From: an uncultured Bacteriovoracaceae bacterium
Lineage (GTDB): Bacteria > Desulfobacterota > Desulfomonilia > UBA1062
DNA length: 64,000 nt
Assembly (NCBI GenBank): GCA_964513375.1
Contig: CAZEMO010000006.1
Coordinates: forward strand, 7,567 to 71,566
Direction: 5' to 3'
Both the position numbers and the translations under genes were made by a program. The notes beneath the pieces are model-generated. The model saw nothing but the letters and a program-made list of their open reading frames with translations. It was not told the origin of the DNA and did no database searches. Of the stretch, positions 1 through 16,017 are shown piece by piece. Position 1 is the stretch's first letter. The number at the start of each line of letters is the position of its first letter.

Positions 1-273
1 AAAGCCATCGACTCAATACCAGTGGACGGCTTTACGGAATCTTCCGGGAAAAAGGCATTAAAGAGCAATATGAAAATGGTGCAGAAGATGCTTGGCAAAG
101 GACATTACAGCGATGCCTATAAGAAGCTGCAGGATGATATAATGGTTAAAGCCGGCGTGTGCAAGAATCCAGATCATGCTGATGGAAACAGCTGGCTTAA
201 AGACTGTGATGCCCGGACCAGACTCCACTGGGCTGTAAATGACATCATGGTACTGCTGAAGATTTTAGTTTAA
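1..273 (+). CDS. 3' end of a protein that starts before the window; short helical C-terminal domain, possibly FIMAH-like
   Basis: Frame open from base 1 (KAIDSIPVDG...) to TAA at 271-273; helical pattern with two Cys (GVC...KDC). Family guess is from recall only. Confidence 0.6.
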   Translation, partial: KAIDSIPVDGFTESSGKKALKSNMKMVQKMLGKGHYSDAYKKLQDDIMVKAGVCKNPDHADGNSWLKDCDARTRLHWAVNDIMVLLKILV

Positions 274-284
274 TTTGATCAAAA

Positions 285-1007
285 TCACTCCAGGTGATAA
301 GTGATGGGGATTACAAGCTGAGCCTCGCCGGGCGGCCTGGGAAAGGGGGCGGTGTCGCGGACTGTTTCGATGGCGTTCCTGTCCAGCAATATGAAACCGG
401 AACTTTTTATAACCTTCAACTCTCTTACGTAACCGTCGGCCGTGATGACAAAGGAAAGAAGCACCTTTCCCTGCCAGCCTTTTCTTTTTGCAGGATCAGG
501 GTAGCTGACGTTATTGAGGATCTTATTCCGGATATAGGCGAAGTGTTCGTTTAAATATTTTGCCCTGGCTGATTCTATGCCGTCATCGCCACTGCCCATG
601 CCTGAGCTTGTCCCAGTTCCTTCTTGCGTACCTCCTGCTATACCGGGAGAACCTTCCTTTATATCCTTACCCTGATCCGGTATTTCCGCTCCCATCTGGC
701 TGCTTTCCAGTTTATCGGCTTCCGGCAATTTGATTACCGGCAGAGTTTCAGGGGCAGGTGCCTTACGGGGAGCCTCTTCTTTCTTAGAGACCTGAGGGGT
801 TGCGGGGGTGATAAGTTTTGTATTTATTAATGGTAGCGGTTCGGACTCCTCGACCTTTTTGACTTCAGGTACGGGTTTCAGCAGATCGAAATCCATGACC
901 ATAGCCTTCTTGTATTGTCCAAGGAAAAGGCTGCAAATAATGATAAGGACAATAATTACTGTGTGAAGCAGGAAGGATAGCTGGAAGGCCTTCCTCTGAT
1001 AGCTCAT
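285..1007 (-). CDS. tonB: TonB family energy transducer
   Basis: N-terminal TM helix with His (SFLLHTVII), Pro/Lys/Glu-rich linker, C-terminal YPxxAxxxGxQGxV...DxxA domain; follows exbB/exbD. Confidence 0.93.
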   Translation of the reverse strand: MSYQRKAFQLSFLLHTVIIVLIIICSLFLGQYKKAMVMDFDLLKPVPEVKKVEESEPLPLINTKLITPATPQVSKKEEAPRKAPAPETLPVIKLPEADKLESSQMGAEIPDQGKDIKEGSPGIAGGTQEGTGTSSGMGSGDDGIESARAKYLNEHFAYIRNKILNNVSYPDPAKRKGWQGKVLLSFVITADGYVRELKVIKSSGFILLDRNAIETVRDTAPFPRPPGEAQLVIPITYHLE

Positions 1008-1384
1008 GGACCTTCCTCGGTCTGGAGGCTGATGCGTTTAAATTCAAGTCCCTTGATGACGTCCAGAACACTGACGAAGTTTTGAAGAATAATACTGCGA
1101 TCCGCTCTGATCAAGACAGGGACTTTTTTGTTCATGTTTCCAAGGTCAGTTTTTAATTCTTCCAGAGATACAAGCCGGGAATTCAAATATATTTTTCCAG
1201 CTTTATCGATTTCAACCGTCTGGGTCTTCAGGATCTCGCCTGAACTGCGATGGGCTTTGGGCAGATCCATGGGAATCATTCCGCTGGCTATAAAAGAAGA
1301 GGTCGTGAGTACAATCGTAAGGAGCACAAGCATGACGTCGACCAGCGGTATGACATTGATGTAATCAAACTCTTTTTCTTTCAT
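1004..1384 (-). CDS. exbD: ExbD/TolR biopolymer transport protein
   Basis: INVIPLVDVMLVLL TM motif and IRAD motif. Confidence 0.95.
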   Translation of the reverse strand: MKEKEFDYINVIPLVDVMLVLLTIVLTTSSFIASGMIPMDLPKAHRSSGEILKTQTVEIDKAGKIYLNSRLVSLEELKTDLGNMNKKVPVLIRADRSIILQNFVSVLDVIKGLEFKRISLQTEEGP

Positions 1385-1799
1385 GTTCGATTTCCCAGCT
1401 CATTTGCAGGACCTTAACTTTCCTCAAGAGAAAATTATATAGTGAGACAGCGGGGATGGCTACCAGAAGACCTATGGCAGTGGCCTTCAATGCAAGGGCC
1501 AGACCGACCATTATCTTGCCTGTGTCCATAAAGCCTTCCTGCCCGATCATATAAAAGGTAACCATGATGCCCAGAACAGTTCCGAGCAGGCCGATATAGG
1601 GAGCATTGCTGCCAATTGTCGCAATGAGGTGGATCTTTTTTGTAAGCTCCAGTTCCAGACTCTTTTGATCCGGGTAAGCATCCAGGTTAATATGCTTGAA
1701 AAAATAAAACCTTTCGATTGCAACCCCTATGGCAATGATGCTCAGGAAGATCAAAAAACCTATGATTCCATAATCTACGACATCTTTAAGCCATTCCAT
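1365..1799 (-). CDS. exbB: ExbB (short form) proton channel subunit
   Basis: LATIGSNAPYIGLLGTV and ALKATAIGLLVAIP motifs. Confidence 0.95.
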   Translation of the reverse strand: MEWLKDVVDYGIIGFLIFLSIIAIGVAIERFYFFKHINLDAYPDQKSLELELTKKIHLIATIGSNAPYIGLLGTVLGIMVTFYMIGQEGFMDTGKIMVGLALALKATAIGLLVAIPAVSLYNFLLRKVKVLQMSWEIEHERKRV

Positions 1800-1855
1800 T
1801 TTCTCTCCTCTGTCTGCACCTCTTTATTTGGCACAGGTGCACATATGTAATGCTT

Positions 1856-4279
1856 CTAAAAACTTGCCCTTGCGCCTGCATACCACATCCTTCCCGGGCC
1901 CGGGTTGAACGGATCGGCGTTATAATCATCCAGTACGTTTTTGCACATTATATATGCCTCGTAATGTTTTAAGAATTTCTGTGAAAGCTTGATGTCGATT
2001 TGAATGGGATTATGGAGTTCCTGTTGATAAAAGTATGATGTGGAGAAAGGATCGGTTGGTTGTGGAATGGAAGCCATTGTATACTGGATCTGGTTAAATT
2101 CCATATAACCGAATATGACCAGGTTTGTGCCTGTTCTAAAATACGTCCTCAAATCAAAGGTTATTTTATGTTCAGGGAGTTTTTCAAATTTGTCGCCTTT
2201 ATTTATGAAGGAATCGTCGACATCCGCCTGATTTCTGGCAAAGAGATATGTATATGAGGGTGAGAAACTTATATCCGCTATATTAAAAACATCAAAAAGA
2301 TTCAAATTCAGTGTTGCCTCAAGACCGTGTATAACTGCAGAATCAATATTCCTGTATATATAGTCGTCAATCTTCGTAATGTATATTTTTGTAATTTTAT
2401 CTTTGTAATCGCTGTAGAAATAATCCACACCAAAGATCAGATTTTTGTTGAAGAATGAAAATTCACAGCCGAGATCGAGATTGAATATCTTCTCAGGCTC
2501 AATGTTCACATCCCTGCTCCCCAGATCGGACGATGTCTGGTAGGGAGACACTGTTTTAGAATATGCCTGAAGGGTGGGGAAAGAAGTTTTCCGGGATGCG
2601 GCAGCCTTCAGCTTCAATAAGTCCTTTACAGGCTCATACAATATGTCTCCAACGGGATTGAAGGAGTCGCGCGTTCCCCAGAGCATGGAATCATCCTCGG
2701 CGATGTACTGGTCGATCATTTCAGTGCTTCCGTCGATTCCCTGTTTTTTCCTGTAATTTTCAAGATCCTGCGCATCATAAGAGATGCCGATTGTTAAATC
2801 CACATTATTCAGCAGCTTCATTTCGTCTTCTATGGCACAGGTGAGATAAGCTGCCCCGATTTCAAGTGTTTCGTATTTGCCGGTGCCGTAATATTTGATT
2901 ATCTTGGTTGATTCTTCGTTGTATGCCTGTTCCTCTTCTATGTGGTTGTTTACATAGTACAGCATGGCGAAGTTCAGCCTGTTCCATGACGCAAGTTTGA
3001 AAGAAGGATATATATTGAATCCGTAGGTGTCGCTTGTCCATATGGACCAGGTCATGGTATCCACATCCCTGTTATATGCCAGGACTTTCTCCAGCGGATC
3101 ATCATAAGCCATAAATTTGTTGGTATTTTCATAGTAGTAGGCATTGGCTTTTAATCCGAAGCCGCCTTTCTCGTAAATTATGTATGGAGACACGGCGAAA
3201 TCATTGTATTCGGGCCAGCGGCTTGACGTGTTGCGCAGGATATATGTAGTGTCCGGCAGTCTCCAGCCTTTCTTTCCGGTATAATCATTATAGGTATACA
3301 TGCTTCTCATATCTGTAAAATAAGAGCTGTTTTCCATTTCAGTCAGATTATAAAAACCCGTTGCCCCTATATCCAGATAAGGTGTTATATGGTATCCGAG
3401 TTTACCGTTAAATTTGTATTTTTCATATCCTATGTGATCCCATATCCCTGATTCGTTAAGATAGTAAGTGGCGGCAGAACTGCCGGGATGAGCATAGATA
3501 TCATTTAAAGTAAATCCATAAAGATCATAACGGGAAAGCTTCTGGAGCCAGTCCTCACGCTCTTCGCGGTCGAGTTTCTCTGATACCTTATACCCGTCTG
3601 ACTTATCGTACATGGCGGAGAACTGATAGTAAAAATTGCCTATGGGCGCGCCGTGGGCGAGGCTTGCCACAAAATTATTATATTCGCCGTACTCAGCTGT
3701 GACATCAAGGTACATTCTGGTGGGTTTTTTTCTGATGAGATTGATTGAACCGACGGCGCCCTTCGTGCCGTACAGGGCAGACGTCGTACCGCGGCTTACA
3801 ATGATCTCCGATATATCAGTCAGGCCTATATTATCAATGTCGATTGTTCCGTTGAAGGAATCGATCAGAGGAATGTCATCCACCATCAAGGCTACCTTGG
3901 ACATATCATATCCGCGCATATAAAACTGGGTAGTGCCTTTTCTCTGTGTCGATACCTGTATGCCGGGCACCTGATAAAGGACATCCTTCAGCTCTTTATC
4001 GCTTCTCTCTTCGATATCCTCTTCGGTAATGTCTGTAGTTGCGCCGCCTTTTACTACTTTGCCTTTATCAATGTCCTTAATGCGGCGCTCCTTGACGATA
4101 ATTTCTTCAAGCTGGTATTCATTATCGGTTTTTGTTTTTTTTGCCGGCTTGTCCTCATTTTCCAAAGGCTGGTTCTGCGATTGGACATCGCCTGCACTTT
4201 CAGTTTTGTTTGTTTCCTGCGCTATTAATGGTAGACCAGTTACAAACAGCAACAGTGTTATCAGAGTTAACAATCTCAT
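1856..4279 (-). CDS. TonB-dependent outer membrane receptor
   Basis: Signal peptide from ATG 4279 (MRLLTLITLL; ORF track extends to 4351), plug motifs VPGI...YMRGY...VALMVDDIPL and SALYG...GSINLI, beta-barrel, terminal Phe (GARASF). Confidence 0.93.
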   Translation of the reverse strand: MRLLTLITLLLFVTGLPLIAQETNKTESAGDVQSQNQPLENEDKPAKKTKTDNEYQLEEIIVKERRIKDIDKGKVVKGGATTDITEEDIEERSDKELKDVLYQVPGIQVSTQRKGTTQFYMRGYDMSKVALMVDDIPLIDSFNGTIDIDNIGLTDISEIIVSRGTTSALYGTKGAVGSINLIRKKPTRMYLDVTAEYGEYNNFVASLAHGAPIGNFYYQFSAMYDKSDGYKVSEKLDREEREDWLQKLSRYDLYGFTLNDIYAHPGSSAATYYLNESGIWDHIGYEKYKFNGKLGYHITPYLDIGATGFYNLTEMENSSYFTDMRSMYTYNDYTGKKGWRLPDTTYILRNTSSRWPEYNDFAVSPYIIYEKGGFGLKANAYYYENTNKFMAYDDPLEKVLAYNRDVDTMTWSIWTSDTYGFNIYPSFKLASWNRLNFAMLYYVNNHIEEEQAYNEESTKIIKYYGTGKYETLEIGAAYLTCAIEDEMKLLNNVDLTIGISYDAQDLENYRKKQGIDGSTEMIDQYIAEDDSMLWGTRDSFNPVGDILYEPVKDLLKLKAAASRKTSFPTLQAYSKTVSPYQTSSDLGSRDVNIEPEKIFNLDLGCEFSFFNKNLIFGVDYFYSDYKDKITKIYITKIDDYIYRNIDSAVIHGLEATLNLNLFDVFNIADISFSPSYTYLFARNQADVDDSFINKGDKFEKLPEHKITFDLRTYFRTGTNLVIFGYMEFNQIQYTMASIPQPTDPFSTSYFYQQELHNPIQIDIKLSQKFLKHYEAYIMCKNVLDDYNADPFNPGPGRMWYAGARASF

Positions 4280-4320
4280 TATTGCATCCCTGTACCCAGA
4301 ATCTATTTTTTTATAGAGAA

Positions 4321-4352
4321 AATGAATGCCGGTATGTTTACCGGCATTCATT
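4321..4352. terminator. Perfect 14-bp stem hairpin between lipoprotein gene and receptor gene; intra-operon terminator or mRNA stabiliser
   Basis: AATGAATGCCGGTA-tgtt-TACCGGCATTCATT; on the minus strand the stem runs into TTTTCTCT. Confidence 0.6.
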
Positions 4353-4395
4353 ATGCAGTTTATTCGATGTGATATTGATCGAATTCAATTAGTTC

Positions 4396-5664
4396 TTATT
4401 GATAAACTTCATCATACGCCTTCGCAAAAGCCGGGGGATTCTTTGCCGAGTAGTCGTATTCAACTGGAGAACTGCTGATCACCTCAATACTGACAGGGAA
4501 GTTTAACTTCGTTCCGCTGACAATATTGTTCGAGCCGTCAACGCGGACAATTAAATCAAAATCCACCAGGTAATAGGCCTGCTGCATATTGGCATAGGTC
4601 CAGCCCTGTCTGGCAAAACCGTCCACTGCAACTATCTTGTATGTATAGGCATTCGGGGTGTCGGTTATATAGTCAGTAAGGAACTGGTCAAGCGAAATGA
4701 CCTTTATATTCGAGTAAGGCCCGAAACTCTTAGTTTCTACATTGAACTTTGTAGTCGATTTACCTGTGACGGTGTTATAGGCAGTGTCGTCAACATAGCT
4801 GTCTGTGGTTGCCTGGACTTCAAAGGTTGCAAGCGATCCTGCTGCATCGGGTCTCTTAACATCGATTTTACGGAACATATATATGTCATATGCCCATTTA
4901 GTTCTATGCTTCCCTATAACACCGGGTACTGATGCCGGATAGAATGTTCTCCCGTCTTTGTCTATCATCAGCAGATAGCCCTGGTTGAACTGATCCCATC
5001 TCAGATCGGGAGTATATGCATTCTCAGAATCGAGGCGGAGAAAATCCGTACGGTTGCTGAATCCATCTTTATTGGATCGGGTGACTATGGAATACATTGC
5101 CCTGGCGTCATTCGTTCCCAGCTTGAGCTCAGGATCAGGTGTTGCGGCATTTACGACATTAATGTCAACAAACTGATCAAGTGAATATCCTGAAACATAT
5201 ACACCACCGGAATACAGTATGTCATCTGTCAGTGTATAGCCGGAAAACAGTGCTGCGTGCTCACCTTCGAGTGTGCCTCCCCCATTATAATATGCCCATT
5301 GATCCGGGAAGTTGTACTGTAAAAAATTGCTTGCAACGGGATCGACAACCTGTATAGTCCATGCTTTTGTGTACGTTCCGAACATGGAGGTCTCTGCAAC
5401 TGAGAGGGTATGGTCTCCAATGTCCGCAAACTTGGGTGTATAGGTATATTCAAGCCCAATGCCTTCCAGAACAACGGCATCATCAAGTGACCACACAACG
5501 CTCGTTGGCTTTAATAATGTCTTGATTGAAAAGGCGCATGAATCTCCAGCCGCAATCGCGACGGTTTGCTCCGACGGCGCGCTCTTCAGGATACACCCGT
5601 TAAGCAGGACAACGGCCATGAACAAGAACAGAATTCCCGATAATCTCCTCTTAAATCTTTCCAT
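4396..5664 (-). CDS. Lipoprotein of unknown function; N-terminal PKD/Ig-like domain plus a domain paralogous to 5736-6782
   Basis: Lipobox LNGC; PKD-like YTYTP...GDHTLSV; long blocks shared with neighbour (AYDIYMFRKIDVKRPDA, VISLDQFLTDYITDTP, KNPPAFAKAY). Confidence 0.85.
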   Translation of the reverse strand: MERFKRRLSGILFLFMAVVLLNGCILKSAPSEQTVAIAAGDSCAFSIKTLLKPTSVVWSLDDAVVLEGIGLEYTYTPKFADIGDHTLSVAETSMFGTYTKAWTIQVVDPVASNFLQYNFPDQWAYYNGGGTLEGEHAALFSGYTLTDDILYSGGVYVSGYSLDQFVDINVVNAATPDPELKLGTNDARAMYSIVTRSNKDGFSNRTDFLRLDSENAYTPDLRWDQFNQGYLLMIDKDGRTFYPASVPGVIGKHRTKWAYDIYMFRKIDVKRPDAAGSLATFEVQATTDSYVDDTAYNTVTGKSTTKFNVETKSFGPYSNIKVISLDQFLTDYITDTPNAYTYKIVAVDGFARQGWTYANMQQAYYLVDFDLIVRVDGSNNIVSGTKLNFPVSIEVISSSPVEYDYSAKNPPAFAKAYDEVYQ

Positions 5665-5735
5665 AACACTCTCCTTATAGTTTTTTTATAAATATTTGCC
5701 CTTGTATGATACCAGTCAAATCTTGGTACTGTTCA

Positions 5736-6782
5736 TCAATATGCCTTTGCAAAAGCCGGAGGATTTTTTGAAGAATAGTTGTATTCAACAGTAGACCCGC
5801 TTATAAGTTCAATCCTGACAGGATAATTAATCTTTGTACCGCTCACCACATTATTGGAATCATCGAGGCGGATGATGATATCGTAATCCGGCAGATAATA
5901 AGCCTGCTGCATATCGGCATAGGTCCAGCCTTCTTTAAAGGAGCCATCCAGAGCTAATATCTTATATGTATAGGAACCCGGGGTATCGGTTATATAGTCC
6001 GTTAGGAACTGATCCAGTGAAATTACCTTTACATTCGTGTAATCTCCGAAGCTTATTGTTTCTACATTGAATTTAGTGGTCGTCAGGGATGTTGCTAAAG
6101 TGTATGATGCATCATTCACGTAGCTTTCTGTAGTCGCCTGCGGCTCAAATGTAACAAGCGAGCCATCTGCATCAGGCCTTTTCACGTCGATCTTGCGGAA
6201 CATATATATGTCATAGGCATATTTATTATTATACATATTGGCTATATCGATTATCGAATCGGGGAAGTATGTTCTCCCGCTATAAATCAGATCCAGCAGA
6301 TAGCCCAGAATATACTGATCCCATCTGAGATCGGCATTATACAAACCTGAACCCACGAACTTGGTTCGGTTGGTGAAACCATCCTGGTTGGAGCGGACTA
6401 CTACGGAATATAACTTTCTGGCATCGTGAGTTCCCAGGACACCATCAGGGTCTGGTGTTGCAGCATTTACGGCATCCTTGTCTATAAACTGACCCAGAGC
6501 ATATCCTGAAACCAGTGTGATGCCGTCTTTATAAAGGATTCCTGTTGTAACTGTATAAGCTGAAAACAGGGCTGCTCTTTCATTGGCAACTGGTTTTCCA
6601 CTAAGCTCATACGCATATTGATCAGGCAGGGTATAGTGTAAAAATTGAGGTGCAGTACCGTCGTAAGGTGTATTTTCAGATGGTGTGTTGATGTTATCGG
6701 TTCCGCCGCCGCCTCCCCCTCCGCATGTTATAAAACTCAGAGCAATCAATGAAACGAGAAGCAATGAAAATATTTTTTTCAT
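5736..6782 (-). CDS. Lipoprotein of unknown function, paralog of 4396-5664
   Basis: Lipobox FITC followed by a poly-Gly tether; roughly 60% identical by eye to the C-terminal ~310 aa of the downstream paralog. Confidence 0.87.
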   Translation of the reverse strand: MKKIFSLLLVSLIALSFITCGGGGGGGTDNINTPSENTPYDGTAPQFLHYTLPDQYAYELSGKPVANERAALFSAYTVTTGILYKDGITLVSGYALGQFIDKDAVNAATPDPDGVLGTHDARKLYSVVVRSNQDGFTNRTKFVGSGLYNADLRWDQYILGYLLDLIYSGRTYFPDSIIDIANMYNNKYAYDIYMFRKIDVKRPDADGSLVTFEPQATTESYVNDASYTLATSLTTTKFNVETISFGDYTNVKVISLDQFLTDYITDTPGSYTYKILALDGSFKEGWTYADMQQAYYLPDYDIIIRLDDSNNVVSGTKINYPVRIELISGSTVEYNYSSKNPPAFAKAY

Positions 6783-6918
6783 ATTAAATACCCCCCTGGG
6801 ATTTGTTATTGAAATAATATAATATAGGGTACCTCTAACAATTCATTTCTGAATAAGGGCTATTGCTGGATCTGATCAATTAATGCTTAATGGGCCCCAA
6901 TTATTATAAGTACCCGAT

Positions 6919-6947
6919 ATAATATGCATCAACATGCATAATGTCAA
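6919..6947 (-). promoter_or_regulatory. Sigma70-type promoter for the lipoprotein-receptor-exbBD-tonB operon
   Basis: Minus strand TTGACA (6947-6942), 17 bp spacer, TATTAT (6924-6919). Confidence 0.7.
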
Positions 6948-6953
6948 TTCAAG

Positions 6954-6976
6954 TTTTATGATTTTAAATCATAAAA
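6954..6976. promoter_or_regulatory. Perfect 11-1-11 palindrome just upstream of the -35 box; candidate operator
   Basis: TTTTATGATTT-T-AAATCATAAAA. Confidence 0.5.
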
Positions 6977-7146
6977 TATTCTAAGATTTTCTGTTACAGC
7001 TGATCCAGCTGAAAACTTTAACGGGATCATGGTATGACATCTCATGTATTATTGGAAAAAAATGTTTCCGGCGGCGGGCTCAGTCAAGGAGGAAGACTGT
7101 TTCGCCTGCTGCCGGAAATGAGTTCAGGTAAGCATCTGAGTTATAT

Positions 7147-8517
7147 TCAACAATCCCCAGGTCGCTTTGTACAAGTAATGCTGAGCGCGACCGGAACAAA
7201 AATCATCATCGAAAAAATGAATATGCTGCTCATGGGAAATTCAGTTTCATTATTGCTGACCGATGATATCAGGCAAAGGCTGCTGGATATCTGGCTTGAG
7301 GTTACGATCTCATCATCAGGATCTTGCGGGACGGGATTATTCGGATCAATCGAACCATATACAACAATTTTCTTCTGGTCGACATAATCCCATCCAGCCT
7401 CGTATACGTCAATATCCGTGCATCCGGCCGGCAGGGGTTCCACCTTTATTATGGTTGCCGTCCTTGCAGAGTAGCCCGCGTTATGATCGTTCTCGGAACT
7501 CCAAGGCCAGACCACGGTCTGGTACGATGATTTCTGCGACTGGTCCGGGGCGCATATGGCCTTCTGAGGCACTACGACCCTGTATGGTCCTTCACCGTCA
7601 AGTTTGTTGTCTGCCGTGAGATGTCCCACATCAAGGTCGACGCCTTCTCGCTTTATGGCCAGCATGGCTTTAAGACCGGCCGTTACGAATATCGGGTCAC
7701 CGTTGCTCCTGCCTATGCAGGAAGGGGCGCTGTAGTCGCACCAGCCTATGATGGTTTCAAGCGAGGCATCCGCCTGGCTGTTATAGTAGTAAATAGAAGA
7801 AGGGTATTTGTAATCCTTGTCATAGACCGGATACAGTCCAGAGCTCTCATTGTTGTAGAGAGAGTAGCTCATTGCAAAACCGTCGGGAGAATATACCGTG
7901 ACGCCTGTTGCAGTCTGAAGTATTCCTGCGTCGTTCAGAAGAACCCTCAGTGAGACCCCCGTGTATTCGGCATAGAAGTCGATCGAGCGATTTGCATTCT
8001 GCAGCATGAACTGTGTGTGCTGTCTCAGCTTCTCCAGCATGTCTTTGGTATAGACCTTTTGCGGCGGGTCGATAAGTCCGGGATAATCACTTGCACTTCC
8101 CGGATATGTAGGCCTCTTTTCGCTGTCCTCCATGTTGTTTATCTCAACAGTGTTCGTATAAGTGTCCCCGTCTGAATCCAGGCCATCTATTGCAAGAACG
8201 GCAGCCGCGTTCCTGCCGTGGTTTCTATAGTCCCGCCCGTACTGGTTCAGTGTGTTGTCACCCTGGCCTGATATTCTTCCGTAATTCGTGATGGCATGGC
8301 AATACTGGCAGCTGCCCATCTGTGAACCTTTGTATGTGCCCCCGGTATGGCAGAGCTGGCACTGGTCGAGCTTAGTTCCTGCCATATCAGGATAGGCCAG
8401 CAGGAACTGGGGTGCATCCTTTTCACCTTCATGATGATATGCAGCGAACGCAGATGCTGCAGTCATGATAAAAACAACAATCATTCCGGATACTTTAAGC
8501 CATTTCATTGAGCTCAC
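7147..8517 (-). CDS. Exported diheme c protein with GEGP motif, sulfite-oxidase-like domain and C-terminal membrane anchor
   Basis: Signal peptide; CQLCH and CQYCH; YTGVSLRVLLNDAG...VYSPDGF and DGEGPYRVVVPQ; ends with CLISS, a hydrophobic segment and KR. Matches, from recall, the 'GEGP motif-containing diheme protein' family. Confidence 0.8.
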   Translation of the reverse strand: MSSMKWLKVSGMIVVFIMTAASAFAAYHHEGEKDAPQFLLAYPDMAGTKLDQCQLCHTGGTYKGSQMGSCQYCHAITNYGRISGQGDNTLNQYGRDYRNHGRNAAAVLAIDGLDSDGDTYTNTVEINNMEDSEKRPTYPGSASDYPGLIDPPQKVYTKDMLEKLRQHTQFMLQNANRSIDFYAEYTGVSLRVLLNDAGILQTATGVTVYSPDGFAMSYSLYNNESSGLYPVYDKDYKYPSSIYYYNSQADASLETIIGWCDYSAPSCIGRSNGDPIFVTAGLKAMLAIKREGVDLDVGHLTADNKLDGEGPYRVVVPQKAICAPDQSQKSSYQTVVWPWSSENDHNAGYSARTATIIKVEPLPAGCTDIDVYEAGWDYVDQKKIVVYGSIDPNNPVPQDPDDEIVTSSQISSSLCLISSVSNNETEFPMSSIFIFSMMIFVPVALSITCTKRPGDC

Positions 8518-8542
8518 CCTTTGTCCTGAAATGTTCTATCAT

Positions 8543-9859
8543 TTAGAGGTCCAGACAGTATCTTAATGTGGCTGTTGATTCCTTGTCGATATAGTCTATG
8601 CTTCCGTCCACAGGGTTAACCCTGACCTTGATGGGGTCTTTAAGGCTTGTGTAAGTATAGTCAAGAAGAATTCTGTGCTGCGGAAGCAGGAACCAGTTCA
8701 ATGCGGCGCTGAACGCATCAGCCCTTCTGGAAGATACGTTCTCACCGTCCTTGATCCAGTCGGGGTCTCCTACAAAGTGGTCTGTTCTCAGCGCAAGAGC
8801 GAAGGCGCCATATGTCTTGGCTGAAGGCTTGAACGGTTTTGATGGTACGATAATATTCACCACCCCTCCTGCAAGGGATATGGGTTCGCCGGTTATGCAC
8901 CATGCGGCTGCAGCATACCACGAATAGAATATTGCGTTCATTGCACGTGAATTCGCAGGTTTCAGTCCTGTGAATTCCAGATGAGTATATTCACCGGATA
9001 CCGCAAAAGGCCCCATCGCCCATGCGGCTTCCAGTCCGAAACGCTGTCTCAGATCTGCTTCCTGTATTACACCGAACTTTGTATTGGCATTGAGTACGTA
9101 GACATTGAGGCTGGTTCCAACCATTCCGGTGCTCTTGACCTGCAGGTTGATCGTGGATGCATCGATTTTCTTGGTGCTGCCGGATGCGCCTATCTGGAAC
9201 TGTTTGAGGGCATTTATCGAGGTTGCTGCAAACGGTTTTATTACAAGCCTTGCCGTGAGTTCCGGTTCGTCATGGTATGAACCCCTGGATGAACCGTCCT
9301 CTCCGTTGCCGTTGAATACGCCGGCTCCGAAATTGAACATGTCCTTATAAAATCCGCCTGTTGCCATCAATCCCACGTCACGGTGCGGGCTGAGATAATA
9401 GCCCATGGACCTCTCGGCAAAAAGTATCGCACGGTCAGGGGTCTGCCATTCCAGGCTGAAGGGTTCCTTGAACTGGCCTCCCCTAAGTTTAACGGGATTG
9501 CTGACGAGCCAGTCTACATAAACATCTGTCATATGTTTTTCCGCTGAAGATCCGTTGAATTCATATTCTGCATAGTACTGCAGCCAGTTTATCACCTGGC
9601 CGGAAACCCTCAGTCTGGCTTTCTTTATGTCGAAGCGGTTATCCGCCCTGTCTTTCTCTCCGTAGTAATGATACTCGGCCCAGATGGAGCCTCCTATTTT
9701 CAGCATCGGTCCATTCGGATCAGTGCTTCTCAAGTAAAATCCGTCCTTATATCCTGTTTCAACATTAAATGTGTCGGATGCGAATGCCGGAACTGACGGA
9801 ACCAGAAGTGCAAGGAAAAAGACCGCAAAAACAAACTTAAGTTTTCGATCACGCATCAC
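8543..9859 (-). CDS. OprO/OprP family (oxyanion-selective) porin
   Basis: Signal peptide; FDIKKARLRVSG, GQFKEPFSLE, DVGL...GVFNGNG motifs; GTG start with GAGGAGG SD. Confidence 0.85.
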   Translation of the reverse strand: MMRDRKLKFVFAVFFLALLVPSVPAFASDTFNVETGYKDGFYLRSTDPNGPMLKIGGSIWAEYHYYGEKDRADNRFDIKKARLRVSGQVINWLQYYAEYEFNGSSAEKHMTDVYVDWLVSNPVKLRGGQFKEPFSLEWQTPDRAILFAERSMGYYLSPHRDVGLMATGGFYKDMFNFGAGVFNGNGEDGSSRGSYHDEPELTARLVIKPFAATSINALKQFQIGASGSTKKIDASTINLQVKSTGMVGTSLNVYVLNANTKFGVIQEADLRQRFGLEAAWAMGPFAVSGEYTHLEFTGLKPANSRAMNAIFYSWYAAAAWCITGEPISLAGGVVNIIVPSKPFKPSAKTYGAFALALRTDHFVGDPDWIKDGENVSSRRADAFSAALNWFLLPQHRILLDYTYTSLKDPIKVRVNPVDGSIDYIDKESTATLRYCLDL

Positions 9860-10002
9860 AAAAGCCTCCTCGATAAGTATTTAATATCTTGCCCCATACT
9901 TCTAGGAATATATCGGTAATTTATTATGCCAAACTTTACATATAATTATCGGAAAATGCAGATGAATGAAATTTTTGTGGGAAATATACTGGCTGCTGTT
10001 TT

Positions 10003-11094
10003 TTACCTGTTTTTTATCACATGAACACCGGTGGCCTTGAATGATGCAATCACTTCCCTTCCTTCCTCAAGGGCCAGTTCGGCAGCTGACTGTTCGGTTA
10101 CATAAGCGATCACGGAAAAACCGCAGTCAATTTCGACTTTGAGGTAAAAGCTCTTTGGGACTATATGGGTTATTACGCCTGGAAACACGTTTCTTGCGCT
10201 GGTACTGAGATCCTTTGAAGTCGATACGGTTATATTTTCCGGCCTTATTCCCAGCAGCACTCTTTCTCCCGGCTCTGCCCGGCCGATGGCAGTAATCTGC
10301 ATGCCAGCTGCTTCTGTTACGATTATGCTGTTTTCTGATGATTTCACTACGCCTTCTATCAGGGTTTCCATACCCATGAAGGATGCTATGAATTCGTTTT
10401 CAGGATGGTTCATAACATCTGCGGGGAGGCCTTTCTGAACGATCTGTCCTTTGTCCATTACTGCGATTTCCGTTGACAGCCTTAATGCCTCATCCTGGTC
10501 ATGTGTTACCATAACAGCGGTTGCACCAGTCTCCTTTAATACTCTTCCGAAATCATCAATCAGTGCATCTCTGGTAGGCTTGTCAAGCGCTGAAAAAGGT
10601 TCATCCATGAATATTATGTCCGGCATGACTGCAAATGCGCGGGCCAGACTGACCCTTTGAGCTTCTCCGCCCGATAGAGTTCTGGCCGAGCGCTTCAGAA
10701 GATGGGTGATGCCGAAACGGTCAGCCTGAAGAGCGACCATTTCATTTATATCCTTCCGGGAAGCTCTTCTGAACCTGAGTCCTGATGAAATGTTTGCGGA
10801 AACGCTTGTGTCAAATAGAAGCGCCTCCTGAAAGATGCAGGCTGTCGAACGCCTGTAGTCAAGCATGTCGCCGTTGTGGGACACTTTCTCTCCCCTGAAA
10901 AGAATCGTACCTGAAGAAGGTTTGAGCAGACCTGCAACGGCAAGCAGCAGGCTTGATTTGCCCGCACCGTTGGGGCCTATGAGTGTCAGATGGGACCCCT
11001 TTGCTATGTCAAGTCCGCTGACATTGACAACCTCAACCCCGCCGCGGGCGACTCTGAAATCCTTTATTGAAAGTATTGGTGTCTGATTACTCAT
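10003..11094 (-). CDS. tupC: Tungstate ABC transporter ATP-binding subunit with C-terminal TOBE domain
   Basis: Walker A GPNGAGKS, LSGGEAQR, DEPFSALD, TOBE-type SARNVF...FKATGVHV. Confidence 0.9.
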   Translation of the reverse strand: MSNQTPILSIKDFRVARGGVEVVNVSGLDIAKGSHLTLIGPNGAGKSSLLLAVAGLLKPSSGTILFRGEKVSHNGDMLDYRRSTACIFQEALLFDTSVSANISSGLRFRRASRKDINEMVALQADRFGITHLLKRSARTLSGGEAQRVSLARAFAVMPDIIFMDEPFSALDKPTRDALIDDFGRVLKETGATAVMVTHDQDEALRLSTEIAVMDKGQIVQKGLPADVMNHPENEFIASFMGMETLIEGVVKSSENSIIVTEAAGMQITAIGRAEPGERVLLGIRPENITVSTSKDLSTSARNVFPGVITHIVPKSFYLKVEIDCGFSVIAYVTEQSAAELALEEGREVIASFKATGVHVIKNR

Positions 11095-11789
11095 CTCGGC
11101 CTTTTCCTCTGCTGTATAAGCGTAAGCCCGAGGTTGATCAGGAATGTCAGCAGAAGCAGGATAACGCCCAGGGCTATCGCTATATCAAAATTTCCTTTTC
11201 CTGTTTCCATGACAGTGGCTGTTGTAAGCACCCGCGTATAGCCCTTGATGTTGCCGCCGACCATTATCGAGGCCCCGACCTCGGAAATAACTCCTCCGAA
11301 GCCTGCCATGATGGCTGCCATTAAAGGCAGTCTGGCTTCCTTTGCAAGTATCCACAGCATCTGCGCCCGGGTTGCCCCGAGCCCAAGTATTTGAAGGCGC
11401 ATCTTCTCGGGCAGGTTCTGGATGGCGGCTATGGAAAGTCCCATGATTATCGGTGTGGCTATTACGGCCTGCGCTATAATTATCGCTGAGGGCGTGTAAA
11501 GGAGCCCGAGACTTCCGAGCGGGCCGTTTCTCCATAAAAATATGGTTACGAAAAGGCCGACAACAACAGGGGGCAGTCCCATTCCTGTGTTGATTGTACT
11601 GATTATGAGCTGTCTGCCGGGAAAATTATTCAAGCCTATCAGCATCCCGAAGCCTATGCCCAGGAGAAGGCTTATCAAGGTAGCAAGACCGGATACTTTC
11701 AGCGTAAGAAGGGTGATCCCTATTACCTCAGGGTCAAAAGAAAAAAGCAGGACAATAGCCTGCCAGATGCCTCTTATGATTAAATCCAT
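11091..11789 (-). CDS. tupB: Tungstate ABC transporter permease
   Basis: MGLPPVVVGL and EVGASIMVGGNIKGYTRVLTTA motifs. Confidence 0.93.
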   Translation of the reverse strand: MDLIIRGIWQAIVLLFSFDPEVIGITLLTLKVSGLATLISLLLGIGFGMLIGLNNFPGRQLIISTINTGMGLPPVVVGLFVTIFLWRNGPLGSLGLLYTPSAIIIAQAVIATPIIMGLSIAAIQNLPEKMRLQILGLGATRAQMLWILAKEARLPLMAAIMAGFGGVISEVGASIMVGGNIKGYTRVLTTATVMETGKGNFDIAIALGVILLLLTFLINLGLTLIQQRKRPR

Positions 11790-11802
11790 AGAATGGATAT
11801 AA

Positions 11803-11864
11803 GGGCCTTCCTTGTCCAGGGGAAGGCCCGCTCAACCGGAATTAGGAGAGGTTGCCGGATTGAG
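11803..11864. other. Two adjacent stem-loops between tupA and tupB (likely mRNA stabilisers)
   Basis: GGGCCTTCC...GGAAGGCCC (11803-11829) and CTCAACCGG...CCGGATTGAG (11831-11864). Confidence 0.5.
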
Positions 11865-11883
11865 TTCAAAATATTAATTCTTT

Positions 11884-12720
11884 CTATTCGGGTTTGCCTG
11901 CATCAGGGAAGAAAAGCGGCGAACCATATTTTGTCACGCCGAACTTGCCGATCTCATCCTGGGTCTTCTTTGAGACCATGAAATCAGAAAATGCCTTGGC
12001 GCCTTCAGCATTAACCTTGGGGAACTTTGCCGGATTGACCTCTATCACATGGTAAATATTTAGCAGCCCCTTGTCACCCTCGCAGAGTATGACCAGTCCG
12101 AGATTTTTCTTCAGAGAGAGATATGTGCCTCTGTCAGTAATGGTGTAGCCGTTCTTTTCGGCTGCGACGTTGAGTGTCTGTCCCATGCCGAGGCCTGTCT
12201 GCTGATACCATTTCTGTCCTTCAGGGTTAATATCTGCCGCTTTCCACAGGTTTTTTTCCTTTGCATGCGTTCCTGAATTGTCGCCTCGAGAGAGGAAGAG
12301 CGATCCGCTGTCAGCGATCTGCTTCATGGCATCCTTTGCCGTTTTTGCAGATTTTACCTTCGCCGGGTCTGCTGCAGGGCCTACTATAACGAAGTCGTTG
12401 TGCATTATGAGTTTGCGGTTTATGCCGTTTCCTGCATCTACGAATTTCTTTTCTGCATCAGGGGAATGTACCAGCAGTACATCCGCCTCACCCCTTTCTC
12501 CCATAGCCATTGCCTGACCTGAACCGACGGCAATTGTCTTGACGAAGTAGCCGGTCTGTTTTTCGAATATGGGAAGGAGATCATCCAGAAGACCCGTGTC
12601 CTGTGTGCTGGTTGTCGTGGCTAGGATGACAGTCTTGTTGGCCGGTGCGGCCTGTGATGGAGCGGCAAGCATCAGTGCGGTGATAAGTGCAATGAATACA
12701 GTCAGAAATTGTTTTTTCAT
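11884..12720 (-). CDS. tupA: Tungstate-binding periplasmic protein
   Basis: Signature LATTTSTQDTGLL, GSGQA...GEADV, SRGDNSGTH; likely start ATG 12720 (MKKQFL...). Confidence 0.95.
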   Translation of the reverse strand: MKKQFLTVFIALITALMLAAPSQAAPANKTVILATTTSTQDTGLLDDLLPIFEKQTGYFVKTIAVGSGQAMAMGERGEADVLLVHSPDAEKKFVDAGNGINRKLIMHNDFVIVGPAADPAKVKSAKTAKDAMKQIADSGSLFLSRGDNSGTHAKEKNLWKAADINPEGQKWYQQTGLGMGQTLNVAAEKNGYTITDRGTYLSLKKNLGLVILCEGDKGLLNIYHVIEVNPAKFPKVNAEGAKAFSDFMVSKKTQDEIGKFGVTKYGSPLFFPDAGKPE

Positions 12721-12736
12721 AATATTGGTCTCCTTT

Positions 12737-13654
12737 TTATTTTTCAGGCCACATGAGCATACCGGAACATTTGAAATCGTAATGTCCGAATGCGCCAGCC
12801 TGGTTTTTGAATTCATCAGACCTTAAAACCGTTATCAGTGCCTGAACCTGGCGTTTAAAGAAATTGTCCCTGGCAAGCACCATGTCGAACCTTTCAGTTG
12901 AAAGCGGAATAAAATCAAGTCCCAGCATGGAAGCGACTGAACCTGTTGCAATACCAGCATCTGCTTTACCCGATAACACGGCGAGGCCGACTTCAAGATG
13001 AGTAAAAACCATATTGTCGTAGCCGGTTATTGATGAGGATTCAATGCTGACCTTTTCAATAAGGTCATCAAGCAGAAGCCTTGTCCCTGAACCTGCCTGA
13101 CGGTTTATTATCCTGATCTTTTTTTTGCTGAAGTCATCTATGGTTTTTATATGCTTGGGATTTCCGGCGGATGTTATAATGCCTGTCTCCCGTGTAAACA
13201 TGTTCAGAACTACTGCATCAAGACCTGGAGCTAACCTGGGAATAAAAGGGATATTATATTGTCCGCTTTCCTTATCGAACAGATGTGACCATGCAATATC
13301 GACCAGGCCTTTCCCCAGAGCAGTGAGTCCCTGAGAACTCCCGGTGTTGGCAGAGAATATGAATATGTCAGGGTATAATAATCTGAGCTTAGAAAGCAGA
13401 AGATCGAGAACCGGATCGTTGCTGCCTGCGGCAAGAAGAGCTCCCGGAACGCGGGCGGCCTTTTCCTTCGCCTGATGTATCCCGGCTCTGGCGTTTTCTT
13501 CGATCCATGAATCGATCATGTGCTTCGGGAAAATCCATTTTCCTGTAGCCTTGGTGCAGGGAAGCTTCCCTTCCTTTATAAGGGCGTAAACCTGTTTTTC
13601 GTGTATTTCGAGATAGGAAGCGACCTCTTTTGTGTTCATCATTTCTTTTGACAT
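12737..13654 (-). CDS. Excisionase-like HTH (HTH_17) plus PBP-like molybdate/tungstate-binding domain regulator, TaoR-like
   Basis: MNTKEVASYL...VYALIKEGKLPC...GKWIFPK; AGSND, GSSQGL, NRQAGSGTR; directly upstream of tupABC. Confidence 0.85.
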   Translation of the reverse strand: MSKEMMNTKEVASYLEIHEKQVYALIKEGKLPCTKATGKWIFPKHMIDSWIEENARAGIHQAKEKAARVPGALLAAGSNDPVLDLLLSKLRLLYPDIFIFSANTGSSQGLTALGKGLVDIAWSHLFDKESGQYNIPFIPRLAPGLDAVVLNMFTRETGIITSAGNPKHIKTIDDFSKKKIRIINRQAGSGTRLLLDDLIEKVSIESSSITGYDNMVFTHLEVGLAVLSGKADAGIATGSVASMLGLDFIPLSTERFDMVLARDNFFKRQVQALITVLRSDEFKNQAGAFGHYDFKCSGMLMWPEK

Positions 13655-13755
13655 GACTGGTTTCCAATAAAACGAAATCTCTATGGTGTCCAGAAAAATG
13701 GTACTTATGTTAACTCATATTTACTTCTATAGGTTCATATAGGAATATTTAGGGT

Positions 13756-14730
13756 TTAAAGCTTAAGCCTGTTCCTTCGTTCTGATTCGTTTAGAAAGCA
13801 GCCTTCGATACATTTCGGTGTGCAATGACCGTTGCACGGCTCGACATGGATTGTAACGCTTGTGTCGGGAAAGTGTTCGGAAATGTGCATAGTAAGGTCA
13901 TCGGTAATATCATGTGAGGCTTCCACCGTCATGTATGAATCGACCATGAGATGAAATTCCACAAACCTGAAATGACCGGCCTTTCTGGTTCGCAGCTGGT
14001 GGAGCCCTAGGACTTGCGGTCTATGAATAATTGCCAGCTCATGAATCCAGTTTGTCTCTGAAGCGGGGAGTCCTACATCCAGAAGGTCCTTTGCAGATTC
14101 CTTGGTGAGCTGGAATGCGGCTTTTATTATCATGAGCGCGACAACCAGAGCCGCAACAGGGTCAACCCAGTGGAGGTTGAAGGGGAGTTTCAGCATATCA
14201 TCGATGAATAAAGCCGACATTCCAATCATGACCCCGCCGGATGTATAAACATCTGTCCTTAAATGCCAGGCATCAGCCATCAGGGCCACGGAGTCAGTTT
14301 CCTTTCCGACCTTGAAGAGCTTTTGCGAAACAAAAATATTCACAACGACCGATACGAACATTACGAGAACACCCATGCCGGTTTTGTCGACTCCTGTCGG
14401 GTTCATGAGTTTATGGATTGCCTCGTAAATGATCCAGGCTGCAGCAAGAAAGATGAGGATGGCTTCAATAGTACCTGATATGTTCTCAATTTTGCCGTGA
14501 CCCCAGGGATGTTGTCTGTCGGCAGGGATTCCCGATGTTCGTACAGAGAACAATGCAATCACTGCCGCAAGAAGGTCAACTCCTGAGTGTATCGCCTCGG
14601 ATATGATCGATACTGATCCGATCATAATGCCGACGATGAGCTTTAAAAGAACAAGGATCGAGTTCGATGCAACAGATAGAGCGGCAACCCTTGTTTTTTT
14701 TATGTAATTATCAGAATTTCTGGAAGACAT
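13756..14730 (-). CDS. Cation diffusion facilitator (FieF-like) with Cys-rich tail
   Basis: SEAIHSGVD, HPWGHGKIE, DAWHLRTD, HVEP motifs. Confidence 0.92.
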   Translation of the reverse strand: MSSRNSDNYIKKTRVAALSVASNSILVLLKLIVGIMIGSVSIISEAIHSGVDLLAAVIALFSVRTSGIPADRQHPWGHGKIENISGTIEAILIFLAAAWIIYEAIHKLMNPTGVDKTGMGVLVMFVSVVVNIFVSQKLFKVGKETDSVALMADAWHLRTDVYTSGGVMIGMSALFIDDMLKLPFNLHWVDPVAALVVALMIIKAAFQLTKESAKDLLDVGLPASETNWIHELAIIHRPQVLGLHQLRTRKAGHFRFVEFHLMVDSYMTVEASHDITDDLTMHISEHFPDTSVTIHVEPCNGHCTPKCIEGCFLNESERRNRLKL

Positions 14731-14883
14731 GATAACATCCCGGTTAATTATATTTTTACATAGATTCTACTGTTGTGAGAGTAATTACATACATAAAAAG
14801 TTTTGACAATACAGCAATCAGGAACTCCTTATTAAAATAGCAGGAGTTATAATATAAATAACCTTCTTGGGTATCTTTTATGC

Positions 14884-15090
14884 TTACTCAGGAAGGATTT
14901 TCCTGATACGTTCCAGCAGTCCGATTACAATCTTATCACGCTCTTTCAGGAGATCTTTAAACTCATACGTACGTGCATGATGAAGCTCGACTCTCGTTGC
15001 AACTTCTTCTTTTTTCAACAGCATGCTGATAAGGCCAAGTTCTTCTTTACTGACTTCAAGATTTAACATGGTTTCCTCCTTATCAAACAA
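14884..15090 (-). CDS. Small hypothetical protein
   Basis: 68 aa ORF; probable start at MLNLEV preceded by AAGGAGG. Confidence 0.6.
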   Translation of the reverse strand: MFDKEETMLNLEVSKEELGLISMLLKKEEVATRVELHHARTYEFKDLLKERDKIVIGLLERIRKILPE

Positions 15091-15114
15091 GTTTATGTAT
15101 CTGTTTCCTTCCTG

Positions 15115-16017
15115 CTATTCTTCTATCACGCTTCTGGTTTCAAGCATAAAGTCATAGAATTTTTTCATCATTGACATAAACTTGCGCTTTTTATTGTAAA
15201 CAATGAAAAACTCTCTATGCGAATCGATGCCTTTAACGGTAAGCGCCGACAGAGATCCTTCTTTGACCTCTCTGTTGACTACGCTTCTTGACAGGATGGC
15301 AACACCCAGATTGGCTTCCACCGAGGCCTTGATAGCTTCGGTACTGGTCAGTTCCATGGCAATCTTGACTTCGATATTATATTTCCTGCTCATGTAGTCT
15401 ATAATGTCTCTTGTTCCAGAACCTTCCTCTCTGGCGATAACCTCGACAGGTTCTTCTTTAATCTTCTCAATGCTCAGGTAGGGAAGCTTTGCCCATTTGT
15501 GTTTGTTTGAACAGATTATTACCAGCTCATCCTTCATGAAAAATTCAGATTTAAGGTCAGGATGCTTAGGTATCATCTGCACAAATGCAAAGTCAATTTC
15601 GCCTGAAAGCACCTGATCTGTTGCTTCCTGCCTGTTTAATGAATGCAGGGATATTTCGGCTTTCGGGAAAAGTTCTTTGAACTTTCCCAGGAAACGAGGA
15701 AGTATGTAGATGCCTATTGTGTTCGGGGCGCCAATAATTATCTTTCCTTTATCACCGGTTCCGAACTCACTCATTACAGCTTTGGTTTCCTCAATAAGAG
15801 AAATTATTCTCCCCGAGTATTCATAAAAAACCTGCCCTGCATCAGTCAGCGATATTTTCCTGCTTATTCTGTCAAACAGTCTTACATTAAGGGAATCTTC
15901 AAGATCCTTTATCTGGATACTTACCGAAGGCTGCGAAAGATGAAGTTTTTTTGCCGTTTTTGTAATGCTCAGAGTTTGAGCAGCTATATAAAAAATTCTT
16001 ACCTGATGAATATTCAT
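15115..16017 (-). CDS. LysR family transcriptional regulator
   Basis: SITKTAKKLHLSQPSVSIQIKDLE...LFDR HTH; REEGSGTR. Confidence 0.95.
   Translation of the reverse strand: MNIHQVRIFYIAAQTLSITKTAKKLHLSQPSVSIQIKDLEDSLNVRLFDRISRKISLTDAGQVFYEYSGRIISLIEETKAVMSEFGTGDKGKIIIGAPNTIGIYILPRFLGKFKELFPKAEISLHSLNRQEATDQVLSGEIDFAFVQMIPKHPDLKSEFFMKDELVIICSNKHKWAKLPYLSIEKIKEEPVEVIAREEGSGTRDIIDYMSRKYNIEVKIAMELTSTEAIKASVEANLGVAILSRSVVNREVKEGSLSALTVKGIDSHREFFIVYNKKRKFMSMMKKFYDFMLETRSVIEE

Follow-up and report, generated by a model that had tools for sequence, protein, structure and literature searches.

Tandem lipoproteins with an internally duplicated head, candidate partners of a TonB-dependent transporter in a molybdenum/tungsten gene neighbourhood

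The closest functional analogues of the proteins described here are SusD, BtuG of Bacteroides, HmuY and TbpB, lipoproteins presumed to capture a scarce ligand (glycans, vitamin B12, haem and transferrin iron, respectively) for the barrels of the TonB-dependent transporters (TBDTs) SusC, BtuB, HmuR and TbpA. SusD is an all-helical, TPR-like protein and BtuG a beta-propeller. We analyzed a stretch of 64,000 nucleotides from an uncultured Bacteriovoracaceae bacterium (assembly GCA_964513375.1, contig CAZEMO010000006.1, positions 7,567 to 71,566; hereafter the window), in which two paralogous lipoprotein genes, lipoB and lipoA, directly precede a TBDT gene. As in the four known systems, the lipoprotein gene lies beside the TBDT, paralogues are multiple and the tether is long or variable. 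By sequence and fold, however, LipoA and LipoB belong to none of these families. Their head is a duplicated small alpha/beta domain without a Pfam match, their gene context is that of molybdenum and tungsten (Mo/W), and the lineages in which they occur are Desulfobacterota, Spirochaetota and Cloacimonadota. That LipoA and LipoB serve as accessory proteins of the downstream TBDT in a Mo/W acquisition route is a reading for which we see about even chances.

LipoA and LipoB share 63% identity over 311 residues (BLASTP, E 7e-140), with long identical blocks that include YDIYMFRKIDVKRPDA, KVISLDQFLTDYITDTP and KNPPAFAKAY. Each begins with a signal peptide that ends in a lipobox cysteine, the hallmark of bacterial lipoproteins (...VVLLNG-C24, MERFKRRLSGILFLFMAVVLLNG-C24, in LipoA; ...LSFIT-C20, MKKIFSLLLVSLIALSFIT-C20, in LipoB), and the cysteine column is kept in 90% of 144 superfamily members. 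Neither protein matched a Pfam or NCBIfam family, and over 42 family members these databases matched the N-terminal stalk domains alone. HMMER searches of PDB sequences gave no match for a whole-family profile and only a chance guanylate kinase match for a repeat-domain profile. These results bear out the initial annotation, which had described tandem paralogous lipoproteins of unknown family with long identical blocks between them, and indicate that the two proteins belong to an undescribed lipoprotein family.

The paralogues differ in the segment between lipobox and head. In LipoB the cysteine is followed by GGGGGGG, and the linker was modelled as disordered (predicted local distance difference test score, pLDDT, <50 at residues 17-40). 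LipoA carries ~83 additional residues (25-107) that separate the lipobox from the common core. This insert is beta-rich by eye and gave no Pfam match at E<=1, so that the poly-Gly tether and the extra segment recorded initially are present but the label 'PKD-like' for the latter is unconfirmed. Because homologues hold one to three CarboxypepD_reg or cadherin-like beta-sandwich domains at this position, a beta-sandwich stalk is plausible in LipoA. The differing tethers (Gly7 versus a domain of ~83 residues, and 1-3 stalks in homologues) fit heads that would be shown at different distances from the membrane.

We next consider the association with the transporter. In the window, the genes form a contiguous minus-strand cluster in the order regulator, tupABC, porin, GEGP (a diheme cytochrome gene), lipoB, lipoA, TBDT, exbB, exbD and tonB, with a gap of 365 nt between GEGP and lipoB (Table 1). 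Nine of the related contexts have a readable downstream flank, and in each of them one to three lipoprotein genes directly precede a TBDT gene and share its strand, a linkage expected of accessory lipoproteins. An orthologous TBDT was confirmed by tblastn (58-94% identity) in 7/9 contexts; the confirmed loci, as listed under our locus numbers, are L001/L010, L002/L004, L003, L005, L007, L008/L018, L012 and L013. For the remaining contexts, L019 and the P0077 contig, the gene called at this position codes for a Plug-domain protein of about 807 aa. Note that L020, where the next gene is truncated at the contig end, was left out of the count. The conserved order extends over Desulfomonilia, Smithella, Desulfobacterales and Spirochaetota, at least three phyla, while copy number (1-3) and N-terminal stalk length differ between loci. 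The exbB-exbD-tonB trio also follows the receptor in L002/L004, L005, L007 and L019. This pattern, typical of surface accessory lipoproteins, supports the view that LipoA and LipoB are TBDT partners. The initial annotation had proposed SusD/BtuG-like capture proteins for the receptor; of this, the partnership is backed by synteny, but the SusD/BtuG-like fold did not hold up. A classification as SusD-like or BtuG-like was rejected, since no SusD or propeller Pfam matches were obtained and the structural model consists of two small mixed alpha/beta domains.

With beta-sandwich stalks like those found in adhesins, the lipoproteins might instead be adhesins or other structural envelope proteins unrelated to transport, their adjacency to the receptor being a conserved operon accident. 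We regard this as highly improbable: the same TBDT orthologue adjoins the lipoproteins across phyla at 55-60% lipoprotein identity while other genes change, and the remote Cloacimonadota relatives again lie in a TBDT-importer operon.

The close family is rare: 5.8 billion proteins yielded 84 clusters, and only 11 species genomes out of 185,579 encode a member. Without exception these are metagenome-assembled genomes (MAGs), assigned to Desulfomonilia, Smithella, Desulfobacterales or 'Deltaproteobacteria', Spirochaetota and Leptospirales, with one binned as Bacteriovoracaceae. A profile search of 1.84 billion representative proteins recovered 143 clusters, including a large remote branch of lipoproteins of 260-300 aa whose partner proteins carry Cloacimonadota annotation. 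The closest genome locus is L003 (CAYNVT010000021.1), with LipoB 89%, TBDT 94% and TupB 97% identical to those of the window; in it, tupC and lipoB are not separated by genes for the porin and the GEGP protein. L003 is likewise labelled 'uncultured Bacteriovoracaceae bacterium', the other relatives, and a MAG protein 90% identical to GEGP, being from Desulfomonilia/Desulfobacterota, and the label may reflect a binning or taxonomy error.

Two similar units within each protein had been proposed at the outset. When the N-terminal and C-terminal halves of the close family were compared by hhalign in a relaxed alignment (42 sequences of low diversity), they matched with a score of 20.5 over 81 columns. 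This was above the scores of all 200 column shuffles (null 12.1 +/- 2.5, maximum 20.45); an earlier hhalign setting had returned only a 21-column match. In the remote Cloacimonadota subfamily (79 sequences), the N- and C-domains aligned over 89 columns with a probability of 98.8% and E 6.4e-17 (shuffle null score 9.0 +/- 1.8). The two domain types also aligned end to end in MAFFT. The motifs named in the initial annotation are present, and hhalign placed them in the proposed register: GYxLxQF with (A/V)IxLxxF, YxYxI..DG with YxYx...D, W..(F/M)Q.GYLL with W..MQ.AYYL, and K....I.LY with K....I.L. The profile comparisons thus identify the internal duplication as real and ancient, the conserved head of ~300 residues being an ancient tandem duplication of an alpha/beta domain of ~100 residues.

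Most of the polar residues conserved superfamily-wide among the 144 members (R122, D134, D151, W154, Y161 and R196 in LipoB numbering) lie in the N-domain. We therefore infer that the N-domain is the likelier ligand-binding unit; several invariant Arg, Asp, Trp and Tyr residues in it could line a pocket for an anion or a cofactor.

AlphaFold2 gave a confident two-domain model of LipoB (pLDDT 88, predicted template-modelling score 0.83), with two small mixed alpha/beta domains, and a model of the C-domain alone reached pLDDT 90.4. In Foldseek searches with the LipoB models, no PDB entry matched at E<=0.001. The top match of the whole protein was weak (entry 7kp2; E 0.03, probability 0.85, TMt 0.46, root-mean-square deviation 8.4 A, 11% identity) and corresponds to PruR, a periplasmic pterin-binding protein with the sulfite-oxidase (SUOX) fold (PDB 7kp2, 7kos; PMC11194511). 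The second PruR entry, 7kos, ranked fifth (probability 0.51). With the C-domain alone, PruR fell to rank 30 (E 2.5, TM 0.25-0.27) and no PDB neighbour was significant (best E 0.47), so the weak PruR resemblance probably resides in the N-domain of the model. The best matches of the C-domain, to Tudor- or Hfq-like small barrels, were dismissed as meaningless (E about 0.5, TM below 0.3).

PruR is the nearest solved structure to the whole LipoB model, at a level that does not establish homology. It is a non-catalytic, extracytoplasmic binder of a small ligand and of about domain size, as proposed for the head, and the motif spacing of the latter (hairpin, short helix, beta, DG, W, beta, K..I) recalls the molybdenum cofactor (Moco) domain of SUOX proteins. 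In contrast to PruR, which acts in signalling and not in uptake, the domain of LipoA and LipoB is duplicated and lipid-anchored.

At the sequence level, a SUOX relationship was not established. The Pfam family PF00174 (Oxidored_molyb; gathering cut-off 24 bits, against 26-30 bits for neighbouring proteins in L013, L014 and L017) gave no match in LipoA or LipoB at E<=0.1, nor in the 42 family members at E<=10. Comparison of either domain profile with the GEGP diheme family by hhalign was also negative (E 0.1-0.4). The initial suggestion that the heads echo a sulfite-oxidase-like core of the neighbouring diheme protein is accordingly rejected by sequence comparison; the Foldseek searches gave the weak PruR similarity for the whole model and no match for the C-domain. 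A repeat profile did align with the Cloacimonadota PF00174 family over 75 columns (E 5e-4 to 3e-3), at a score reached by 1/200 and 7/300 shuffles and on the second, non-Pfam unit of those proteins. We therefore treat a SUOX-like fold as a hint rather than a finding.

A possible distant SUOX relationship, together with redox partners encoded close by (the diheme GEGP protein and, in L002, the products of cytochrome c maturation genes), raises the question of whether the lipoproteins are themselves enzymes, for example redox or hydrolytic enzymes of SUOX type that free a metal from its complex. The superfamily alignment contains no conserved cysteine other than that of the lipobox. A catalytic Moco site is ruled out because the Mo-ligand cysteine of SUOX enzymes is absent, and we found no cofactor-binding or catalytic motif and no enzyme-family match. 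An enzymatic role is, in our estimation, barely credible.

We now turn to the evidence that links the lipoproteins to Mo and W. These metals are needed by formate dehydrogenases, nitrogenase and many anaerobic redox enzymes, and the usual assumption is that they cross the outer membrane passively. In the window, tupABC and the adjacent regulator are predicted to form a tungstate/molybdate-type ATP-binding cassette (ABC) importer with its sensor-regulator. As the NCBIfam score of TupA (260 bits) lies under the 400-bit equivalog cut-off, it may be specific for either tungstate or molybdate. TupABC with a PBP_like regulator recurs in L002/L004, L003 and L013. Other loci encode a ModABC-type importer beside the lipoprotein-TBDT pair. 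Such an importer is present in a JGI contig, in the Smithella locus, which also encodes FmdE and two molybdopterin oxidoreductases, in the Desulfobacteraceae locus, where XdhC and an HTH-PBP_like regulator accompany it, and in the spirochaete locus, which further contains nifH, nifDK-like genes and MoeA. Two tupA paralogues are present in L002/L004 and in L003.

An exported SUOX-like protein is a further recurrent element. It is represented by the GEGP protein in the window and in L002/L004, and by a PF00174 protein encoded right after the TBDT in L013 (26.1 bits versus the cut-off of 24) and in the JGI contig. The GEGP protein of the window shares 90% identity with a Desulfomonilia MAG counterpart, so that the window probably derives from this lineage. 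The protein also shows a weak Pfam match to Oxidored_molyb. Its eponymous motif in NF041762 (KLDGEGPYRVVVPQ, GEGP...R.VVPQ) aligns with the LRLIVPQ/RLVIPQ motif of true Oxidored_molyb proteins (hhalign E 2.6e-4) and seems to correspond to a strand conserved in SUOX Moco domains, G-x-P-x-R-x-x-x-P. On account of this alignment, the diheme cytochrome may be read as a fusion of a haem module with a SUOX-like module. GEGP (NF041762) and PF00174 proteins co-occur with both the close and the remote branch of the lipoprotein family; these exported proteins probably deal with the same cargo. The GEGP protein differs from the lipoproteins in that the latter are without haem-binding CxxCH motifs.

The remote branch retains this association with a different importer. 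In L017 (Ca. Tenebribacter davisii, Cloacimonadota), the operon at 8630-15746 begins with a lipoprotein that has 30% identity to LipoB, followed by the S component of an energy-coupling factor (ECF) importer (PF09819), a PF00174 protein of 302 aa, two small proteins, two ECF ATPases, a TBDT and the ECF T component. One of the small proteins is SUOX-like (E 2e-10). Gene content across loci thus defines a conserved quartet of lipoprotein, TBDT, SUOX-like exported protein and an inner-membrane importer of varying type. Operons combining a remote member of the lipoprotein family and a TBDT with an ECF importer are also found in L014 and L015, with two or three small SUOX-like exported proteins, and would represent an unusual uptake route.

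These associations suggest the following route. At the outer membrane, LipoA and LipoB would capture a substrate in short supply and deliver it to the TBDT barrel, with import energised by the co-encoded ExbB-ExbD-TonB. In the periplasm, a SUOX-like protein (in the window, the GEGP diheme cytochrome with its two c-type haems) may process or relay the cargo, and an inner-membrane ABC or ECF importer, here TupABC, would finish uptake. Location at the outer membrane or cell surface, ligand binding, ligand identity and hand-over are what we infer. The substrate is most likely a Mo or W species, whether a trace oxyanion, a thio-complex, an organic chelate or a cofactor-bound form; by gene association, Mo/W is the best-supported cargo class. 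TupA and ModA are the known high-affinity capture proteins for these metals and are encoded in the clusters, the lipoproteins being proposed as their outer-membrane counterpart. TupA and ModA differ in having the type II periplasmic-binding-protein fold and in serving an inner-membrane ABC transporter, and share no similarity with the lipoprotein head. The TBDT itself offers no clue, as its similarity to PDB entries was limited to the plug domain (CirA, PirA and FptA) and it has no close relative there, so that no substrate can be assigned from it.

Beside tupABC lies the gene for an anion-selective porin, and the spirochaete locus likewise has a weak Porin_O_P relative after the receptor. That the porin adjoins TupABC suggests a route already available to the free oxyanion. 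The porin and the chelate-type importers of some loci favour a larger cargo, such as a chelate, a thiometallate or a pterin-bound metal, and we speculate that the species taken up is larger than the free oxyanion. In its most extended form, the proposal is that of a dedicated TonB-dependent system for W/Mo acquisition in strict anaerobes. A duplicated-domain lipoprotein would capture the cargo extracellularly and a SUOX-like protein would free or convert the metal before Tup/Mod (or ECF/FecCD) takes over, the cargo perhaps being chelated, thiolated or pterin-bound and unusable by ModA/TupA alone. We advance this tentatively, as possible rather than probable. If true, it would explain the metal supply of syntrophs and of sulfate-reducer relatives in sulfidic, metal-poor habitats, and it would give a function to three barely annotated or unannotated families: the lipoproteins, the GEGP diheme protein and the small non-catalytic SUOX-like proteins. 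In the literature on TonB-dependent Mo/W uptake, molybdophores, GEGP and TunR, of which our coverage is incomplete so that an earlier description is possible, we found no account of such a system; nor did the literature covered, again incompletely, describe the lipoprotein family or the function of the GEGP protein. The lipoprotein head is also a good structural target, being compact, confidently modelled, duplicated and without a solved relative.

The same accessory role could apply to an organic cargo, with the lipoproteins and TBDT salvaging a pterin or molybdopterin-type cofactor, or a metallophore of Mo/W or another metal, and the repeat forming a divergent pterin pocket of SUOX/PruR type. 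That both PruR entries are among the best PDB neighbours is in keeping with this, as is the twilight profile match to the Cloacimonadota Oxidored_molyb-family protein. TBDT substrates usually exceed the size limit of porins, and the window already contains a gene for an anion porin. Chelate-type FecCD/Peripla_BP_2 importers, radical-SAM proteins and DUF364 occur across L012, L018, L019 and L020, the Cloacimonadota importer is of the ECF vitamin type, and a Metallophos phosphoesterase recurs in L001, L002 and L020. However, the weak PruR match disappears when the C-domain is searched by itself, Pfam Oxidored_molyb does not match the lipoproteins, the profile match was equalled by 7/300 shuffles, and most loci encode oxyanion-type Tup/Mod importers. 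We consider an organic cargo in this sense rather doubtful.

Several observations weigh against Mo/W capture at the outer membrane by LipoA and LipoB. L012 and L020 encode a FecCD/Peripla_BP_2 importer and a radical-SAM protein without Tup or Mod (L012 additionally DUF364/DUF4213 and a second TBDT), and the ECF importer of L017 has a YkoE-type S component. Judging from the FecCD loci and the ECF operon, the link to Mo/W is not universal and the cargo may be an organic chelate or cofactor. In the lipoproteins we identified no conserved Cys/His cluster and no known oxyanion-binding motif, and the fold of the head gives no basis for assigning a binding function, as none of its structural neighbours in the PDB is significant. 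A scan of the whole window with Rfam detected no Moco riboswitch and no other element. With regard to location, the residue after the lipobox cysteine is Ile in LipoA and Gly in LipoB, neither being Asp, but the sorting rule for Asp at this position holds for E. coli only. Finally, the Cloacimonadota lipoprotein gene adjoins that of the ECF S component rather than that of the TBDT.

The last point also bears on the orientation of the lipoproteins. Facing the periplasm, from the inner leaflet of the outer membrane or from the inner membrane, they could act after the TBDT and relay cargo to the SUOX-like/GEGP protein or to the binding protein of the importer. Periplasmic SUOX-like proteins and inner-membrane importers co-occur with them as consistently as the TBDT does, and no surface-export machinery (such as Slam) was seen among the open reading frames (ORFs) of the window. 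In contrast, long and variable beta-sandwich stalks and one to three paralogues per locus are more typical of surface capture proteins, and in Desulfobacterota and Spirochaetota the gene always directly precedes that of the TBDT. A periplasmic orientation appears unlikely to us, and capture at the outer membrane remains the preferred reading.

Table 1. Features of the lipoprotein-TBDT cluster and its surroundings in the window
Feature	Position	Strand	Basis or remark
LipoB, 348-aa lipoprotein	5736..6782	-	ORF
LipoB layout: signal peptide and lipobox Cys20; Gly7 tether and disordered linker 21-40; N-domain ~41-202; C-domain 203-348			
LipoB N-domain (residues 41-202)	6177..6662	-	hhalign repeat; more conserved repeat unit
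LipoB C-domain (residues 203-348)	5739..6176	-	second, more compact repeat unit
LipoA, 422-aa paralogous lipoprotein	4396..5664	-	ORF
LipoA layout: signal peptide and lipobox Cys24; ~83-aa insert 25-107; N-domain 108-270; C-domain 271-422			
LipoA insert or 'stalk' (residues 25-107)	5344..5592	-	missing from LipoB
TonB-dependent transporter (TBDT)	1856..4351	-	Plug and beta-barrel Pfam domains
exbB	1365-1799	-	ORF
exbD	1004-1384	-	ORF
tonB	285-1007	-	ORF
GEGP-motif diheme c-type cytochrome with divergent SUOX-like module, exported	7147..8517	-	NCBIfam NF041762, 401.8 bits
Anion-selective porin, phosphate porin O/P family	8543..9859	-	Pfam Porin_O_P, E 8.6e-41
Regulator, HTH_17 and PBP_like	12737-13654	-	Pfam
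tupA	11884-12816	-	Pfam; NCBIfam TupA model, 259.7 bits
tupB	11091-11789	-	Pfam
tupC	10003-11094	-	Pfam
Sigma-70-like promoter TTGACA-17-TATTAT, upstream of lipoB	6919..6947	-	11/12 positions matched

The spacings between lipoB, lipoA, TBDT and exbB are 71, 44 and 56 nt, and exbB, exbD and tonB then overlap. The promoter before lipoB was the best sigma-70-like site scored across window positions 200-14000, and its -35 element and flanks are kept in the related loci L003 and L004. Given this strong promoter and the short gaps followed by overlaps, lipoB to tonB most likely constitute a single transcription unit. The promoter spacer holds a perfect palindrome, TATGCATgttgATGCATA, at 6923-6940 (TATGCAT-N4-ATGCATA). 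It occurs nowhere else in the window, and neither L003 nor L004 preserves it exactly. Together with a looser element at 9924-9943, it may represent a common operator for the adjacent PBP_like regulator. The motif of the latter site (~70 nt upstream of the porin), TATG-N10-CATA, carries too little information for a call, with 6 matches in the window against 2.6 expected.

The leader of ~130 nt between promoter and lipoB start (6783-6918, minus strand) is well kept in L003 (about 9870-10000). Its blocks GTTAGAnnTACCCTATATTA, ATAAnAAAT and GGGGGT are retained in L004 (about 9850-10000), a locus at 72% protein identity. It is without an Rfam match and may act as a regulatory RNA.

A perfect 14-bp stem, AATGAATGCCGGTA-AACA-TACCGGCATTCATT, followed by TTTTCTCT, lies at 4321-4352 (minus strand) between the lipoA stop and the receptor gene, and covers the first ATG of the receptor ORF. 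This hairpin may attenuate or stabilise the transcript between the cistrons and so set the ratio of lipoprotein to receptor. The receptor signal peptide begins at M25 (MRLLTLITLLLFVTGLPLIAQE), for which reason the true TBDT start is probably M25, at about 4279.

Two further types of gene recur near the lipoprotein-TBDT pair in different lineages. A Metallophos (calcineurin-like phosphoesterase) protein of 350-390 aa is encoded in L001 (20245-21303), L002 (5490-6605) and L020 (8073-9239), and DUF364/DUF4213 ('putative heavy-metal chelation'), sometimes with a radical-SAM protein, in L012 (14590-15426), L018 (481-2063) and L019 (4341-5102). They may be part of the same pathway, for example in the processing or synthesis of a chelate or cofactor.

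At the upstream end of the cluster, the tupA ORF as listed extends 80 nt into the regulator gene. Its signal peptide begins at M33 (MKKQFLTVFIALITALMLAAPSQA), which places the true start of tupA probably near 12720, just past the regulator stop; the regulator and tupABC would therefore form one operon.

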